Shown: piece after piece, positions 21,123 to 28,013 of the stretch
Layout: each line of letters starts with the position of its first letter
Position numbering within the stretch: position 1 is the first letter of the stretch
Assembly: GCA_050250935.1 (NCBI GenBank)
Contig: JBFWNS010000005.1
Location: forward strand, 88,418 to 152,417
Direction: 5' to 3'
DNA: 64,000 nucleotides
Source of the DNA: Candidatus Margulisiibacteriota bacterium
Lineage (GTDB): Bacteria > Margulisbacteria > Marinamargulisbacteria > JBFWNS01
The notes under the pieces: model-generated
Told to the model about the DNA's origin: nothing
Seen by the model: the letters and a program-made list of their open reading frames with translations, nothing else
The model's database searches: none
Made by a program: the position numbers and the translations under genes

Positions 21123-22886
21123 ATGCTTGTGTCTCAATTTGGTTTTTTGAAAAAGATTTTGGCGGGTTCGGTGCCTGCGGTGGTGGTTTCGGACGTAGAT
21201 GGGACACCCGTTCGTAGACCCGATTTTTTAAGGGTGATGGGGTTGGATTCGCCAAGTGCTAGCCCTCTGGGGACCCCAGGAACCCGTGCTTTTCTTGAGA
21301 GTCTGCTAAGGCAAGCGGGTACTCCGGAACAGGAAATTAAAGGCAAAATAGCCGAATTGGAAAAACAACGGGAAGCAGGGCAGGCAGCGTTCCAAGCGCT
21401 GGTCGACCAGATCGAGGCCTTGGGCAACCAGTATCGTGCTGTGCAAAGAGAAGCCGGACAAGTGGAAGCACTTCGAGAAGAAATCATATCTTTGAATGCC
21501 AAAGTTGGGGAATTAAGAGGAGAAAATGACAGTCTGGTTGCTGCTTCTGAAAGTGCTAACGCTGAATTGGAGGAAAAAACGGCGTTGGTTTCTTCTTTGC
21601 AGTCCGAACTTTCAGTTCAAAGAAGTAGTCTTGAATCCAGTGAAGCTCGGGTTGCTAGCTTGAGCGCATCGGCTGAAGACGCTTCGGCAGTTTTAGAGTC
21701 GTTGCAGTCGCAGCTGTCGAGCACTCGCCTAGAACTTGAAGGTGCTAACTTGGCATTAGACAAAGCTTCGAAAGCTTTGGCAGCCTTGCAATTAGAAAGA
21801 GATACGCTTGTCAGTGCCCATTCGGCTCAAGTTTTGGAACTCAGTTCAAGCCATGAGGCCGTGCTAAATGCCAGAATTGCCGAAGCCATCGAAGCTGCTA
21901 GACGGTCAACACGTTCGGATGCTGCGGCTACTCTAGAGTCTGAAATCGCTTCTTTGAGGGCTAAGTTAACGGCTGAGCATGAAAGTAAACTGAGAGAATT
22001 GGAATTGTCCCATCGTTCCGAATTGGAGCAAATTGCGAGTCGTGAAGCTGATGTAAGCCAGATTCTTAGTTCGCTTCAAGAGCGAGTTCGTTCTTCAGAG
22101 GATACTCTTCGAGAAACTGAAGCTGCAAAAGATGCGGCTCTTGCCGAGAAAGCGGCACTGGCCGCTGCTTTGGCAGAACAAGAGTCTGCGCTTGCCAAAG
22201 CCGTCAATACAGAATCCGAATTAAGAAGCCAGTTACAACAAGCACAATCCCTTCAACAAACAACGGCCGCAGATGCTGAGCGAGTTAGAACCAAAGCCGA
22301 ACAAAATAAGCAGCTGTTAATGAAAGCAATTCAAGACATCAACGCACGCGTGGAAAAAAAGGCCAATCTTCACCGCGAAGAAGCCAGTGTCTTGAGAAAC
22401 TTGGTTGAGGCCCAAAATGAGCAACTAAGAATCCTGACGGGAAAATTGACTGAGCTAGGGGATATTCCAACCTTAACTTTTGATGCACCAAGCTCTCCTG
22501 CTGCGAGGCCTTTCGCAGCGGCAGAGCCTGCGGAATCCGAAGTGGTTGCGGCACTTCGAGCAGAAGTTGATGACAAGGCACAACGCCTAGAAGTGCTAGA
22601 AAAAGAATTAGCAGGGGTTACCGCCTTGCGCGAACGAAATGCGATGCTTGAGGAGAAATTACGTCAACAGGATGCGCCGCTGCAAAGCAGATTACGAGCA
22701 CAGGTGGGATCTGCCAGAGGGGCATTGGCTTCAGCATTTGGGGATGCTCAACCTCCAGTTTCTGCTCGATCAGATACTTCCGCTGGTCCAGATGCCCTGT
22801 CCACATCTGCTCGTACAACAGGTTCAAGGGGCTTGAATGCGGCTCGTTCCTCCGTTTTAAATAGGTCAGGGCAGCCTACTAGATGA
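21123..22886 (+). CDS. large coiled-coil protein, Ala/Glu/Leu/Ser-rich, no recognisable homology
   Basis: Strong RBS GAGGAG 5 nt before ATG 21123. The ORF track's 21063 start lacks an RBS. About 400 aa of heptad-like A/E/L/S/Q repeats, then an S/A/R-rich disordered tail. No signal peptide. Confidence 0.7.
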   Translation: MLVSQFGFLKKILAGSVPAVVVSDVDGTPVRRPDFLRVMGLDSPSASPLGTPGTRAFLESLLRQAGTPEQEIKGKIAELEKQREAGQAAFQALVDQIEALGNQYRAVQREAGQVEALREEIISLNAKVGELRGENDSLVAASESANAELEEKTALVSSLQSELSVQRSSLESSEARVASLSASAEDASAVLESLQSQLSSTRLELEGANLALDKASKALAALQLERDTLVSAHSAQVLELSSSHEAVLNARIAEAIEAARRSTRSDAAATLESEIASLRAKLTAEHESKLRELELSHRSELEQIASREADVSQILSSLQERVRSSEDTLRETEAAKDAALAEKAALAAALAEQESALAKAVNTESELRSQLQQAQSLQQTTAADAERVRTKAEQNKQLLMKAIQDINARVEKKANLHREEASVLRNLVEAQNEQLRILTGKLTELGDIPTLTFDAPSSPAARPFAAAEPAESEVVAALRAEVDDKAQRLEVLEKELAGVTALRERNAMLEEKLRQQDAPLQSRLRAQVGSARGALASAFGDAQPPVSARSDTSAGPDALSTSARTTGSRGLNAARSSVLNRSGQPTR

Positions 22887-25259: not shown

Positions 25260-28013
25260 ATGCACAAATTTGTTTCCATGTCCTTTGTGGTTGATGACCA
25301 AGATCTTGTTCCGCAAGCCATTCGGTGTATGATTGCCTGGATCGAGCATGGGTTTGATGTGATTGCCCAAAGGACCTTGTTACGAGCAGAACTAGAGGAC
25401 AAACACTTTTTAGATCAAGCAACCCCAGCTCAATTACTCTGGTGTAGAGGGGTTTTGCTGTGTTGTGATCATTTTATAGCCAGTGTGGATGACGAAGAAC
25501 CGGATGGCCGATACATCGACGATTTACGGGCCAGTATTGTCTGGTTGCAAAAGGCCAAAACAGAATCACCAAATACCCATCCGTTTTACACCGAGTTTGC
25601 CAACCCCCTAGATCTGCTCTTTGAGCGTAAATATCGCCAAAATTGCAGCCAAGCTTTACGGACAGCGCTTTCTGAACGCTTATCTGAATTGCAGAAAATG
25701 CTGCCTTCCGAATCAGCAATTCTGAAGGTAACATCCCCACCCCGAACCCCGGCTAGGCGGGTGGCTGTAGATGCCCAAGCCGGCACCACCCTTACCCCCG
25801 AACAATTGCAAGTAGTACAGGCCATATTCGATGCTGTGAGTCCTGATCGACGAATTGATGCTCTCGCTGCAGCTAGTCCACAACGCCCGTCGGGGGCAGC
25901 TTTACGAAAACCCCCTCCACCCCCACCGCTTCCACCCCCACCACCACCTTCCTCCGACTCGGTTTCTTCGGTTTCCTCGGATAGGGATGTAAAGTTAGCC
26001 TGTGACCTAGCTCTTGGTATTAACAAGTTAAACACTTGTGAACAAGCATTGAATAAAGTAGATGTTGCTCTAGACAAACCGCAGCCGCTTTGTGATTTTG
26101 CAGCTGTAATTTTAGAAATGCATCAGACGCTAACGGCGTTGTCCGGTAACGACAAGGTAACATCCCTTCAAGCGTATCAAGGGTTGACAGTTTTATTGCA
26201 AAAGTCGGCTGAAACCCTGATTAAACGTCTGGATGAAGATATCTGGACAATCTTTGAGCACTCATCTGAAAATCCAAAATGGGATCAATTGGCCAGATGC
26301 GTAATGACCCATTATAAGGTAAGCGCATTTAGCGAACTTCGAACCCGCGTGGTTGAGGCCTTGCAGTTGAAAAAAGAAGTATGGAATTTACGGCCAAAGT
26401 TTGAACAGCTTACTGCGTACTTGGTGGCAGGGATTGAGTCGATTGCTGAGATTGATAGTGATCGCCAAGAGGAAGTTGTGATTTCTAAAATAGATCGTTG
26501 TTTTGATATGCTTCAGCTGTGTTTTCCAGGCGACTTTCAGGATGAAAAAACAGCGCTTTCGGCTCATAAGGCACGCATTCAAGAAGCCCTTAAGAAACGC
26601 CTTGAAGGCCTGGAAGGCGCTTTGAAACTTCAATATCCATTCGATCAAAGTCCGGTGGAGAGCCTTTGTAAAATGGCAGAAGATGCTTGGCAGGATTCCT
26701 TAACCTCAAAGCCCCTACCGCCTGCTCATGTCGAAGCGTTTTGGGCTATGATTCAAGACAGGAAGGTGTTTCCTGTTTTTACCCGTGCTGTGAACGATGC
26801 CTATCGGGATGAGTCCCGAGTCTGTGATCAAATGTGCCGAGACTTTAATGGCCTGTTTAGAGGGTGTTCTGATCCTTTAACCGAAACCGATTTGTCCCGA
26901 GTCCGGGGTGATTTTTTGACGATTCAGGTGCCAAGAACCCTGGGTTTTTATGTCTTGTATGAACCCGAAACGCGTTGGAAGCCATTGTTGAAGAATTTGG
27001 TTCAATTGGCTGTGAGCTTGGATTTTGCATTGGACATAACCCCAGTTTCTGAAGAGCTTCAAACGATGCGCGTTCATGTTTTAAAGTGGTTTGCTCAAAT
27101 TTTTCCCATGGCAGTGATGCGATTAAGTCGCCCTCCTGTATCTTCTGGTGCAGTTGCATCCGCAGCGAAGCAAGATTTCGACGCGTTTAATCGGTTAATG
27201 CCAAAAGGAGCTCAACAAGCCGAAAGTGCTTCTCAGCCAGTAGTGGCCCCCGCGCCTGGTCGAAGCGCTTTAATGGCTTCTATACTTGGTTTTAAAAGAG
27301 GTGAACCAAGACTTGCCGACGATACCCGTGCAGTTGTGATTACTGATATTCGAGAAATGTGTTTACAGGGGCTCCCTTTTTCTATACAGGGTTTATTGCG
27401 ACACCCTGAGTTAGAGTCGGTTTTGCCAAGGCTTGGAGAGCTATATTCGCAATGTAGACAAAGATATATATTTGGAATAGGGATGTCTTATCAGAATGTG
27501 TTGGAGAATATAGATACATTAAACCAAGAAGCCGTTGAAAATGGTTTTTTACCTGTTCTTGTAGATTTGGGATGGGTTGAAAAGAGGATGGGATATTATT
27601 ATCCCCGTCGTTTGGTGATGAATCAGAGCCTTTTATTGTCTAAATTATCTGATGGATTGGATTTTGAAAATCAGACTATTCAGATACAACAGTTGGTATC
27701 CGTATTGCCGGGAAAATGGTGTATGGAGCAAAAAATTACTGTGCTCCATCAACTTTTGTCTATAGTTTCAGAACCAGTCGGTGACGAGCAAAAAAATGAT
27801 AAAATGGACAGAGTACGCAGATTATTGTCAAAATTTCCAGAAAAATTGAGTACAGACCAACTCGGTCAGGTAGAGTATTTATTGTCTACATTCCCAGAAA
27901 AATGGAATGAAGAGCAACGTTGTTTCTTGAACATCTTGGGGGTTTTATCCAAGCTTTTGGATAATTTAAGGAAGCGTTTTCAACCGCCTGCTCTTGAGTT
28001 TAAATCTAGCTAG
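25260..28013 (+). CDS. hypothetical 917-aa Cys-rich protein with a PPPPPPLPPPPPP tract
   Basis: TAAATG coupling to the upstream gene. Polyproline at residues 218-232. About 20 Cys. C-terminal 190 aa are AT-rich with FPEK-containing repeats. No signal peptide. Confidence 0.65.
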   Translation: MHKFVSMSFVVDDQDLVPQAIRCMIAWIEHGFDVIAQRTLLRAELEDKHFLDQATPAQLLWCRGVLLCCDHFIASVDDEEPDGRYIDDLRASIVWLQKAKTESPNTHPFYTEFANPLDLLFERKYRQNCSQALRTALSERLSELQKMLPSESAILKVTSPPRTPARRVAVDAQAGTTLTPEQLQVVQAIFDAVSPDRRIDALAAASPQRPSGAALRKPPPPPPLPPPPPPSSDSVSSVSSDRDVKLACDLALGINKLNTCEQALNKVDVALDKPQPLCDFAAVILEMHQTLTALSGNDKVTSLQAYQGLTVLLQKSAETLIKRLDEDIWTIFEHSSENPKWDQLARCVMTHYKVSAFSELRTRVVEALQLKKEVWNLRPKFEQLTAYLVAGIESIAEIDSDRQEEVVISKIDRCFDMLQLCFPGDFQDEKTALSAHKARIQEALKKRLEGLEGALKLQYPFDQSPVESLCKMAEDAWQDSLTSKPLPPAHVEAFWAMIQDRKVFPVFTRAVNDAYRDESRVCDQMCRDFNGLFRGCSDPLTETDLSRVRGDFLTIQVPRTLGFYVLYEPETRWKPLLKNLVQLAVSLDFALDITPVSEELQTMRVHVLKWFAQIFPMAVMRLSRPPVSSGAVASAAKQDFDAFNRLMPKGAQQAESASQPVVAPAPGRSALMASILGFKRGEPRLADDTRAVVITDIREMCLQGLPFSIQGLLRHPELESVLPRLGELYSQCRQRYIFGIGMSYQNVLENIDTLNQEAVENGFLPVLVDLGWVEKRMGYYYPRRLVMNQSLLLSKLSDGLDFENQTIQIQQLVSVLPGKWCMEQKITVLHQLLSIVSEPVGDEQKNDKMDRVRRLLSKFPEKLSTDQLGQVEYLLSTFPEKWNEEQRCFLNILGVLSKLLDNLRKRFQPPALEFKSS

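Follow-up and report, generated by a model that had tools for sequence, protein, structure and literature searches.

A foreign four-gene operon of coiled-coil, helical and polyproline proteins upstream of a Margulisbacteria flagellar operon

The first product of the locus analyzed here, g1, resembles the intermediate-filament-like, coiled-coil-rich proteins of bacteria in its head-rod-tail layout. Genes of the cytoskeleton are mostly inherited vertically. Secreted effectors combine coiled coil with disorder just as typically, and foreign codon usage and orphan status are common among them. The present block of four genes looks horizontally acquired, unlike the usual vertical inheritance of cytoskeletal genes. 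Its signals of a specifically eukaryote-like kind are limited to polyproline runs and a sub-threshold match to the WH2 family.

Gene models and coding evidence

The block lies within the window, the whole 64-kb stretch of DNA that was analyzed. The sequence-only reading had described a compact unit of four same-strand, translationally coupled genes encoding proteins of 587, 652, 137, and 917 aa, and the open reading frame (ORF) list bears out the sizes, coordinates, shared strand, and coupled junctions:

21123-22886, + strand: g1, 587 aa from its ATG
22883-24841, + strand: g2, 652 aa (621 aa with the start at 22976)
24846-25259, + strand: g3, 137 aa
25260-28013, + strand: g4, 917 aa

The g1 and g2 genes overlap by ATGA, g2 and g3 are separated by 4 nt (TAA-GATC-ATG), and g3 and g4 abut as TAAATG. 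Internal start sites are uncertain. Starting g1 at a TTG (21063) would lengthen it to 607 aa, and of its possible starts a GTG (21129) has better spacing to the GAGGAG Shine-Dalgarno sequence than the ATG. The Shine-Dalgarno sequences of g2 to g4 are weak or absent. Annotators also differ, as NCBI reports 621 aa for g2 and 842 aa for g4, and Logan reports 911 aa for g4.

That all four are real protein-coding genes is well supported. None contains an internal stop, and G occupies the first codon position at 32 to 42% in the annotated frame versus 12 to 25% in the other frames, a pattern resembling that of murA, dapL, and flhA. ORFs opposite the block reach at most 163 aa and include no Pfam matches. 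The sequence is reproduced without difference over 20.4 kb, the block included, in an independent Logan assembly of run SRR27751816. Polyproline runs had been reported for the encoded proteins; they are present and, among all ORFs of at least 100 aa in the 64 kb, runs of at least four prolines are confined to the block.

Composition and site of insertion

The block is compositionally foreign. GC3 is 0.31 to 0.40 in its genes (0.39 in g1 and 0.36 in g2) versus 0.45 to 0.63 in 23 other profiled genes, and it steps abruptly at both borders. Compared with the other genes, the block uses ATA for 24% of Ile codons (versus 2%), AGA or AGG for 36% of Arg codons (versus 12%), and GCC for 23% of Ala codons (versus 53%). 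A leave-one-out log-likelihood ratio was positive for all four block genes and negative for 28 of 29 other genes tested, the sole exception being gt2 at about +0.01. The block is also the top tetranucleotide outlier among 58 windows compared. Its surroundings are as follows:

20890-20911, + strand: intrinsic terminator of dapL, a 9-pair stem with 6 G-C pairs followed by a T-run; left limit of native sequence
20912-21122, + strand: AT-rich region upstream of g1, presumed to contain the block's own promoter
28036-28045, + strand: TTGGTATACT, resembling an extended -10 element and lying ahead of cofG, identified by eye in comparison with the related genome L001
28085-29161, + strand: CofG-type radical SAM gene (NCBIfam CofG, 270 bits versus a cut-off of 209); right-hand native neighbor

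The terminator noted at dapL, to the left of the block, is present. Placement of the block between dapL and the flagellar operon holds on the dapL side; on the other side, the adjoining gene is cofG, itself not a flagellar gene but in this lineage the first gene of that operon. With a GC3 of 0.53, cofG shares 61 to 64% identity with the genes that occupy its position in L001, L003, and L004 and is the conserved first gene of a cofG-x-x-fliM-flhG(parA)-fliN-fliOPQR-flhBA operon. Five related genomes carry the same cofG-to-flhBA operon, preceded in them by alr with 23S/5S rRNA or by an MscS gene, and the block is missing from all five. Between g4 and cofG, a promoter-like TTGGTATA(A/C)T is kept, and GTTGGTATAAT, upstream of the orthologous gene in L001, is the same string as TTGGTATACT (by eye, with no statistical test); because this string is shared, the flagellar operon would have its native promoter downstream of the block. 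As had been noted, no integrase or transposase was found near the block, nor were tRNA genes or flanking repeats found at it or a terminator after g4. Taken together, these observations give good support to a lineage-specific operon of four genes that an uncultured Candidatus Margulisiibacteriota bacterium acquired recently, with insertion between the terminator of dapL and the native cofG promoter.

A search of the + strand upstream of g1 gave no sigma-70 consensus site, and the region 20912-21122 is not repeated elsewhere in the window. An extended -10-like string, TGcGATAAA, was seen there by eye.

The position of the block would suit lineage-specific accessories for flagellar motor function or placement, acquired and then kept beside the switch and export operon, although we regard this as improbable. 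The block is directly upstream of and co-oriented with these genes, with no intervening terminator, and relatives tolerate extra ORFs inside the operon (o328 and L003_229 between fliP and fliQ and, in L003, an 812-aa ORF between flhB and flhA). Two further hints in this direction are insignificant, namely a match of g2 to the collar protein FlbB (E of 0.048) and one of the g4 model to the Campylobacter periplasmic motor scaffold (Foldseek rank 3, E of 0.17). Both, however, are at chance level, and the flagellar operon has its own promoter downstream of a block that is foreign in codon usage and missing from every one of the five relatives. Known motor scaffolds are, moreover, periplasmic, with signal peptides or transmembrane (TM) anchors, neither of which is evident here.

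Four orphan proteins

That g2 and g4 have no recognizable homologs is strongly confirmed: each matched only itself in 5.8 billion clusters, and a full HMMER (phmmer) scan of 1.84 billion representatives with g4 likewise returned only the self-match. Homology searches of the largest protein collections covered g2 and g4, which were thus probed more deeply than g1 and g3; g3 forms a cluster of one at 90% identity. None of the four could be placed in a known family of Pfam, NCBIfam, PHROGs, PADLOC, or PDB, in agreement with the sequence-only reading, and five profile libraries gave coiled-coil noise only and no known domain for g1 to g4. For g1, Pfam, NCBIfam, PHROGs, and PADLOC yielded such noise, and PDB yielded no match at E of ≤0.01. 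No match was found for g2 in PDB, phage, or IMG/VR data, for g3 among family profiles or PDB, or for g4 in PDB, phage, plasmid, IMG/VR, or JGI data. Searches of phage, plasmid, IMG/VR, and JGI sets with the block proteins, and of PHROGs and phages (by tblastn) with the block, also returned nothing. By exclusion, the block appears to be novel and a singleton in public data, and as a singleton it gives no sign of being conserved or under purifying selection.

Homology to a housekeeping system such as SMC/MukB, or to phage proteins, had been raised as a possible refutation of novelty and was looked for but not found. SMC, Rad50, JetC, and LmuB profiles match g1 at 10 to 30 bits versus cut-offs of 300 to 1000, and only in coiled-coil segments. 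These weak matches, together with the setting of a four-gene operon on a small foreign islet between housekeeping genes, could suggest anti-phage defense or another conflict system (an SMC-like Wadjet, Lamassu, or an unknown type on a defense islet). We consider this highly improbable given the scores just described; in addition, none of the four proteins contains an ATPase head, nuclease, Toprim, or other enzymatic domain, and no Walker A motif was seen in them by inspection. The four proteins are without clear export signals, enzymatic domains, or known domains.

The features to which the descriptions of g1, g3, and g4 refer are these:

21330-22637, + strand: g1 heptad rod, aa 70-505, from the heptad score; interrupted by breaks
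25227-25247, + strand: perfect (CCT)7 trinucleotide repeat in the printed DNA, encoding the g3 polyproline run
25257-25259, + strand: single TAA between g3 and g4, from frame arithmetic and three-frame translation of the junction

Coiled coils had been proposed for both g1 and g2. We used a heptad score of our own, computed in 28-residue windows with shuffled sequences as the control. Heptad-patterned windows hold 62% of g1 residues versus 5% in shuffles, which makes its coiled coil genuine, whereas that of g2 is weaker, with only 15% of residues in such windows. The described richness of g1 in A, E, L, and S is borne out by its composition (A, 16.9%; L, 12.9%; S, 11.2%; E, 11.1%; pI 5.11), and its rod is followed by a basic, S/R/T/A-rich tail. 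The claim that signal peptides and TM segments are missing stands for TM segments (maximum KD19 of ≤1.8, with one borderline segment in g3 at 1.78) but less so for signal peptides: the N-terminal 70 aa of g1 contain KK and then a hydrophobic ILAGSVPAVVV, which may be hydrophobic enough for a weak signal peptide or membrane helix. An N-terminal amphipathic helix in g1 was unsupported, with a hydrophobic moment at the 46th percentile. In g2, a short N-terminal coiled coil is accompanied by helical domains on S/P/T-rich linkers, and the C-terminal helix is basic and rich in R, E, Q, and A.

The description of g3 as small and acidic fits its 137 aa and pI of 4.76, but its C-terminal end is PPPPPPPARR and not the PPPPPPP reported. 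The g4 protein is multidomain and predicted to be all-alpha: its N-terminal region is helical, a polyproline linker leads to about 385 aa of further helical sequence, and a second linker leads to a C-terminal repeat domain. In the structure search proposed earlier, the AF2 models are all-helical but, at pLDDT 49 for g3 (four helices) and 42 for g4 (helices only), unreliable. Foldseek returned nothing for g3, and its top match for g4 had an E of 0.014 and a TM of 0.07.

A possible scaffold complex and its alternatives

Our preferred reading, held tentatively and at a probability of roughly three in ten, is that the acquired operon encodes a coiled-coil/helical scaffold complex of the cytoplasm. 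Because the proteins have no recognizable catalytic domain and are predicted to be nearly all alpha-helix, with S/P/T-rich or polyproline linkers, we propose a non-enzymatic structural complex whose products would act jointly in the cytoplasm or along the membrane's inner face. The g1 protein would dimerize or polymerize via its 435-residue heptad rod and might be tethered to the membrane by its hydrophobic, basic N terminus. The g2 and g4 proteins would be modular adaptors with helical domains spaced by flexible or PPII linkers, and the small, acidic g3 would act as the partner of g4, its translation coupled at TAAATG. Architecture is what links the proteins to a scaffold or cytoskeletal role, and their co-assembly, location, and any role in the cell are inferences.

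Two features of g4 bear on a different, rather unlikely role:

25911-25949, + strand: PPPPPPLPPPPPP, g4 aa 218-230, in mixed CCN codons
27249-27299, + strand: WH2-like helix (Pfam PF02205), g4 aa 664-680, within GRSALMASILGFKRG; sub-threshold, a lead only

The sequence-only reading was correct that g4 carries PPPPPPLPPPPPP and about 2% Cys (2.1%). A sequence of the LPPPPPP type fits the profilin and EVH1 ligand pattern, and runs of six to seven prolines are unique to the block within the 64 kb. The four proteins could accordingly be read as effectors acting on a eukaryotic host cytoskeleton and exported via the adjacent flagellar type III apparatus (fliM-fliPQR-flhBA), with g4 as an actin-assembly factor combining profilin/EVH1-binding polyproline, a helical core, and the WH2-like helix, with g3, encoded directly upstream, as its small acidic secretion chaperone, and with g1 and g2 as coiled-coil effectors. 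Foreign codon usage and orphan status would fit such a role, WH2 was the only family reported for a hand-picked 70-aa fragment around aa 664-680 (16.4 bits; E of 0.007), and an intracellular Margulisbacterium exists, Ruthmannia eludens of Trichoplax (PMC6784892). In full-length g4, however, the WH2 match lacks significance, lying far under the gathering score (12 bits, with an E of 0.18, versus 23.1), and covers profile positions 1 to 17 of 28, with the LKKV half missing, and 430 aa separate this helix from the polyproline run. Matches to FH2 and to CesT, FliS, FliT, and FlgN chaperones are absent, and the polyproline of g3 is a microsatellite. The window contains no injectisome or other host-directed secretion system; among the genes of the region are those for a flagellum, a cluster for polysaccharide export, and genes of peptidoglycan and DAP, a set that typifies free-living cells.

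The scaffold reading also has to be weighed against the unlikely, though not far-fetched, view that the block is leftover mobile DNA, functionless or in decay, or else a set of very young genes, with ORFs that are still open but serve no established function in the cell. A singleton in about 15 billion proteins, with flat, unadapted codon usage, Shine-Dalgarno sequences weak or absent for three of its genes, and start sites on which annotators differ, would fit this view. The g3 and g4 genes share one reading frame and are one TAA apart, and the TAA is also in the Logan assembly; this arrangement may reflect a split gene, readthrough, or termination followed by reinitiation. Together with the slippage-prone (CCT)7, this in-frame stop is compatible with decay or very young genes. 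Nevertheless, four stop-free ORFs of 137 to 917 codons over 6.9 kb are very unlikely to last without selection, codon-position periodicity is intact, and no integrase, transposase, tRNA, flanking repeat, or phage or plasmid similarity marks a mobile element. The heptad register of g1 and a repeat pattern in g4 are, in addition, kept despite divergence of the DNA:

27633-27938, + strand: C-terminal tandem repeats of g4, five copies of about 20 aa each with the pattern LLSxFPEKWxxEQ... (direct repeat family D1, by alignment)

The repeats have a period of 57 to 69 nt, and their copies are 60 to 80% identical in DNA, with the LLSxFPEKWxxEQ pattern kept. They are predicted at pLDDT 56 to 72, the sole part of the AF2 model of g4 in that range.

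A compact operon without detectable relatives

The block consists of four forward-strand genes, g1 to g4, located between dapL and a gene for a CofG-type radical SAM protein (cofG):

21123-22886, +, g1, 587 aa
22883-24841, +, g2, 652 aa
24846-25259, +, g3, 137 aa
25260-28013, +, g4, 917 aa
28085-29161, +, cofG

A sequence-only reading had proposed these four genes with the same boundaries and tight junctions, and both descriptions proved accurate: g1 and g2 meet at ATGA, g2 and g3 at TAA-GATC-ATG, and g3 and g4 at TAAATG, the last two genes sharing one reading frame with a single TAA between them. 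None of the four contains an internal stop, and G occupies 32 to 42% of first codon positions in frame versus 12 to 25% out of frame, a pattern also seen in murA, dapL, and flhA; these are not chance ORFs. We rejected a wrong-strand or wrong-frame reading of the block, as the ORFs antisense to it reach at most 163 aa and have no Pfam match. Internal start positions are uncertain and differ between annotators; good Shine-Dalgarno sequences are absent from g2 to g4, and the spacing of the GAGGAG of g1 better suits a GTG at 21129. The same reading had placed the block between dapL with its terminator and the flagellar operon. A strong terminator is indeed found 3' of dapL (20890-20911), but the next gene on the right is cofG according to NCBIfam.

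Exact-sequence look-up assigned the window to locus tags AB7F28_064xx and protein accessions MGE4170340 to MGE4170348, on a 161.6-kb MAG contig. Over 20.4 kb, the whole block included, the window and the Logan assembly of run SRR27751816 agree exactly, and because a second assembler yields the identical sequence, chimeric assembly of the block is unlikely.

The earlier claim that the proteins have no recognisable homologs stands and is now better supported. Homology searches of the largest collections covered g2 and g4: both matched only themselves among 5.8 billion clusters, as did g4 when 1.84 billion representatives were scanned in full with HMMER, and g3 forms a 90%-identity cluster of one. 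Searches of Pfam, NCBIfam, PHROGs (phage protein families), and PADLOC (defence-system models), including fragment scans at E values of up to 10, returned only coiled-coil and low-complexity noise, with coiled-coil noise for g1 and nothing meaningful for g2, g3, or g4. No PDB sequence was matched by phmmer with g1 to g4 beyond polyproline stretches, tblastn and blastn against phage and plasmid records gave no match, and pattern scans of IMG/VR and JGI metagenome contigs gave no relative. As the four proteins fit no known family, they appear to be novel by exclusion. It is firmly established that the operon is real, compact, and lineage specific and that its proteins lack detectable relatives. 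If functional, the block would comprise about 2,300 protein residues that have no relative among about 15 billion sequences in public data and to which no fold can be assigned, from a phylum that to our knowledge has no cultured member. As a singleton from one sample, novel by exclusion only, it is a candidate rather than a discovery.

A compositionally foreign block inserted ahead of the cofG-flagellar operon

The composition of the block sets it apart from its surroundings. GC3 is 0.31 to 0.40 in g1 to g4 versus 0.45 to 0.63 in 23 other profiled genes, with a step at each block border. ATA accounts for 24% of isoleucine codons in the block and 2% in other genes, AGA plus AGG for 36% versus 12% of arginine codons, GCC for 23% versus 53% of alanine codons, and CCC for 15% versus 46% of proline codons. 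The leave-one-out synonymous-codon log-likelihood ratio is positive in each of g1 to g4 and negative in 28 of 29 other genes, other Pfam-less ORFs included, with gt2 at about +0.01. Of 58 tetranucleotide windows, none deviates more than the block (rank 1).

The locus was compared with five relatives (the related-genome contigs L001, L003, and L004 and two ENA/JGI contigs), which were located by FliM homology and by exact-protein look-ups of contigs. No FliM homolog exceeds 50% identity, so sampling of the lineage is sparse. All five relatives conserve the order cofG-two small ORFs-fliM-parA-like-fliN-fliO-fliP-fliQ-fliR-flhB-flhA-x-sigma, and the cofG product at this position is 61 to 64% identical across relatives. 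The block is absent from the cofG-operon locus in all five of these distant relatives (FliM identity of ≤50%), and tblastn of g1 to g4 against their loci was negative. Upstream of the cofG operon, the relatives carry either a divergent alanine racemase gene with 23S/5S rRNA genes or an MscS gene. In L001 (GCA_945898045.1), the 23S-5S rRNA pair (3180-6346) lies two genes 5' of the cofG-flagellar operon and occupies a 3.4-kb gap in the gene table.

Between g4 and cofG lie 71 nt that retain GTTGGTATACT, a close match by eye to GTTGGTATAAT, which stands 5' of the L001 orthologue. Both resemble an extended -10-like element, and its retention 5' of cofG would, on this by-eye comparison, place the block upstream of the native promoter. 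No integrase, tRNA, Rfam family, or flanking direct repeats marking an insertion were found in the window or flanks, in keeping with the earlier remark that integrases and transposases are lacking. A 22-nt inverted match (19/22 identical) brackets the block at 20735-20756 and 28014-28035, its right arm starting one base past the g4 stop codon; because the left arm lies within the dapL coding sequence, the match is probably due to chance.

Overall, the block has the distinct composition and sharp borders of a horizontally acquired islet. It resembles horizontally transferred islands and ORFan islets in its atypical codons and tetranucleotides, its sharp borders, its syntenic absence, and its homolog-less ORFs, but, unlike them, it carries neither an integrase nor mobility genes and lacks both a tRNA target and direct repeats, and its ORFs are unusually long for ORFans (587 to 917 aa). 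We regard it as firmly established that the block is a compositionally foreign, lineage-specific insertion upstream of the conserved cofG-flagellar operon.

An insertion of this kind might be a functionless remnant of mobile DNA or a set of very young genes. The singleton status of the block, its flat codon usage, its poor ribosome-binding sites, and the in-frame stop between g3 and g4 are all consistent with this, as is a microsatellite, the perfect (CCT)7 repeat that codes for the polyproline of g3; the polyproline of g4 is coded by mixed CCN codons. We consider such an origin somewhat unlikely.

Upstream of the block is a large gene cluster for the biosynthesis and export of polysaccharide (648-6495 in the window, and L006). 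Three of its genes, gt2, degT, and a flippase gene, have intermediate codon usage, suggestive of a second horizontally exchanged region. The cluster includes GT2, DegT aminotransferases, flippases, UDP-glucose dehydrogenases, a Wza-like exporter, and an acyl carrier protein with an AMP-ligase. Further Pfam-less ORFs at 45024-53420 (129, 862, 280, 595, and 812 aa; several of them K/E/Q-rich) have native codon usage, unlike g1 to g4, and no similarity to them.

Protein architecture and candidate functions

It is firmly established that g1 to g4 have no recognisable catalytic domain and that they are made up largely of helices, together with a single long coiled coil and linkers that are flexible or polyproline. 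The amino acid composition, the polyproline runs, the cysteine content of g4 (2.1%), and the acidity of g3 (pI 4.76) are as the sequence-only reading had described, and the transmembrane segments it reported lacking were found in none of the four proteins. Its description of g3 as ending in seven prolines needs amendment, as the prolines are present but the C terminus reads PPPPPPPARR. Outside the block, no window ORF of at least 100 aa has a run of four or more prolines.

Heptad patterns were scored with a home-made predictor and shuffled controls, not with COILS or Marcoil. By this score, 62% of g1 residues fall in heptad-patterned windows (aa 70-505, five segments) versus 5% in shuffles, or 27% versus 0% at a stricter threshold; the fraction is only 15% in g2 and 0 to 6% in control proteins. 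The layout of g1 is head-rod-tail, with a head of 70 residues that includes KK followed by ILAGSVPAVVV and a basic, S/R/T/A-rich tail. The hydropathy of its N terminus (KD10 of 2.17) is lower than in the true signal peptides of FliP (3.13) and Wza (3.07), also encoded in the window, and higher than in cytoplasmic proteins, and a MinD-like amphipathic membrane helix at this position is unsupported by the hydrophobic moment. In g2, a short coiled coil is accompanied by helical regions with S/P/T-rich linkers between them and a basic C-terminal helix. Run with no alignment, AlphaFold2 (AF2) modelled g3 as four helices (pLDDT of 49) and g4 as all-alpha (pLDDT of 42), in which only the C-terminal 100 residues reach 56 to 72; these residues repeat a unit of about 20 aa (LLSxFPEKWxxEQ) five times in tandem. 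Foldseek searches of the PDB with these two unreliable models gave only uninformative hits, with best TMq values of 0.07 to 0.30 and a lowest E value of 0.014. A hexapeptide common to g1 and g2, LNRSGQ, is not significant (a shared 6-mer occurs in 23 of 300 shuffles), and g1 to g4 showed no paralogy to one another, to the window's remaining Pfam-less ORFs, or to the loci of the relatives.

A long A/E/L/Q/R-rich coiled coil and weak profile matches on coiled-coil arms are features that g1 shares with SMC, MukB, Rad50, JetC, and LmuB. In contrast to these proteins, it scores 10 to 30 bits against cut-offs of 300 to 1000, has no ATPase head or hinge, is too short at 587 aa, and has partner genes unrelated to kleisin/KITE subunits. 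For example, its best match to SMC TIGR02168 is 29.7 bits (cut-off, 567) and Rad50 models give 12 to 21 bits (cut-offs, 700 to 1087), in both cases on coiled-coil segments only; no P-loop/AAA Pfam match was found in g1 to g4, and inspection of the sequences found no GxxxxGK[ST]. Among PADLOC models, LmuB (16.5 bits) and JetC (10 to 14 bits) matched g1 within its coiled coil only; g2 and g3 matched no model, and g4 gave only a chance match to MTase_II (13.7 bits). With no ATPase heads and scores far under the cut-offs, we rejected membership in SMC/MukB, Wadjet (JetABCD), and Lamassu, and it is very improbable that the block is a defence system. A prophage or phage origin was likewise rejected on family, genome, and integrase grounds: PHROGs gave only a 15-bit coiled-coil match to SbcC, tblastn with g1, g2, and g4 as well as blastn with the whole block found no match among 50,697 phage records, IMG/VR pattern scans gave nothing, and the flanks have no integrase. 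Homology to SMC/MukB-like or phage proteins, which the sequence-only reading had named as grounds against its own interpretation, was therefore not found, with scores far under cut-offs and empty phage searches. As judged from these searches, the block appears, by every test and firmly, to be neither SMC-like nor phage-like nor defence-like.

Crescentin, FilP/Scy, Helicobacter Ccrp, and cyanobacterial CCRPs belong to the coiled-coil-rich, intermediate-filament-like proteins (CCRPs), a class defined by architecture within which sequence conservation is usually undetectable. As scored by the home-made predictor, g1 has the central heptad rod flanked by head and tail that typifies this class, and it resembles CCRPs in that the rod (about 435 aa) is interrupted by short linkers, that head and tail are non-coiled, and that neither an enzymatic domain nor sequence conservation is detectable. 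It differs from CCRPs in showing no sequence relation to any of the named members, in being a horizontally acquired singleton rather than a lineage-wide core gene, and in having three non-coiled-coil partners with polyproline linkers. Our preferred, tentative reading, to which we give a probability of roughly 0.3, is a nonenzymatic structural complex, cytoplasmic or at the membrane, in which a dimeric or polymeric coiled coil of g1 would be joined by g2 and g4 as modular adaptors and by g3 as the partner of g4. Most known members of the scaffold and cytoskeletal class are products of lone genes inherited vertically; such a complex would be an acquired, multicomponent addition to that class.

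The polyproline and coiled-coil content had also been read as pointing to host-targeting effectors or a cytoskeletal module, a functional proposal that is neither confirmed nor refuted. Proline-rich and WH2 modules occur together in the actin-assembly effectors Chlamydia TarP, Vibrio VopL/VopF, Rickettsia Sca2, and Burkholderia BimA, and eukaryotic formins are ordered FH1-FH2-tail. The order of g4 is similar, with a polyproline run, a helical region of about 385 aa, and a short WH2-like amphipathic helix, and like actin effectors, g4 is large, orphan, and foreign in composition, with a small acidic neighbour gene. The putative profilin-binding-type, proline-rich tract is PPPPPPLPPPPPP (g4 aa 218-230). 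The WH2 (PF02205) match at aa ~664-680 scores only 12 bits (E value of 0.18) in the full protein, against a gathering score of 23.1, and 16.4 bits (E value of 0.007) in a 70-aa fragment chosen by eye. This subthreshold match covers only profile positions 1 to 17 of 28, the helix half, and the LKKV half is absent. In WASP and VopL the proline-rich tract adjoins WH2, whereas about 430 aa separate the two in g4. FH2 (PF02181) gave no match even at E values of up to 10, in aa 240-625 or over the full length, and no other actin-related family was found in g4. Unlike formins, TarP, and VopL, to which it has no PDB sequence or fold match (the fold test being weak at a pLDDT of 42), and unlike actin effectors generally, g4 has no FH2 or actin-related domain and no accompanying injectisome or autotransporter here. 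Actin-regulator mimicry by g4 may be considered a lead, not a finding. As a small acidic protein directly upstream of a possible substrate, g3 (137 aa) fits the profile of a chaperone, an unspecific likeness. It has no Pfam or NCBIfam match to CesT, SycD/TPR, FliS, FliT, or FlgN and no PDB sequence or fold match, the latter again a weak test (pLDDT of 49).

An effector function is conceivable because an intracellular Margulisbacterium, Ruthmannia eludens, exists (PMC6784892) and because flagellar export genes neighbour the block; we nonetheless think it unlikely that these are secreted actin-directed effectors. Such a set would imply a eukaryote-associated lifestyle and use of the flagellar apparatus for secretion in Margulisbacteria. 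Very little credence is given to a more detailed scheme in which g4 would be a new, sequence-unrelated actin-assembly factor in which a polyproline FH1 analogue, a helical core, and a WH2-like tail follow a formin-like order, g3 its chaperone, and g1 and g2 coiled-coil co-effectors, all delivered to the interior or surface of a eukaryotic host by flagellar type III export. If true, Margulisbacteria, the sister phylum of Cyanobacteria, would gain its first effector module directed at a host cytoskeleton.

The flagellar operon and other genes of the window

The position of the block beside the flagellar operon could also indicate a flagellar accessory module. Matches of g2 to FlbB (E value of 0.048) and of the g4 model to a Campylobacter motor scaffold (E value of 0.17) point the same way but are at chance level, and the foreign composition of the block and its absence from all relatives with the same operon argue against this function, which we hold to be quite improbable.

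The operon itself has several unusual features. The cofG gene (NCBIfam CofG, 270 bits) heads a fliM-flhG-fliN-fliOPQR-flhBA operon in the window (28085-39256) and in five relatives; two small ORFs with no assigned function come after it, and there is no adjacent cofH. It is unusual for a gene encoding an FO-synthase subunit to be linked with an operon for flagellar switch and export proteins. FliM (30575-31906) carries an extremely acidic, D/E/H-rich C-terminal extension of about 110 residues, and its homologs in relatives are likewise long (421 to 553 aa). Between fliP and fliQ, a 328-aa ORF (34021-35007) with a signal-peptide-like N terminus and no Pfam family has a homolog in the same position in L003 (229 aa; E value of 5e-43) and is absent there from L001 and the other relatives. 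L003 also has an 812-aa Pfam-less ORF between flhB and flhA (10381-12819), with native GC3 and unrelated to g1 to g4, whose DG-containing motifs look PP2C/SpoIIE-like by eye. Farther along the window, a eukaryote-type UTP-glucose-1-phosphate uridylyltransferase gene (PF01704, 440 bits; 55810-57318, -) adjoins a gene for a 973-aa SNF2-family helicase (57339-60260, +).
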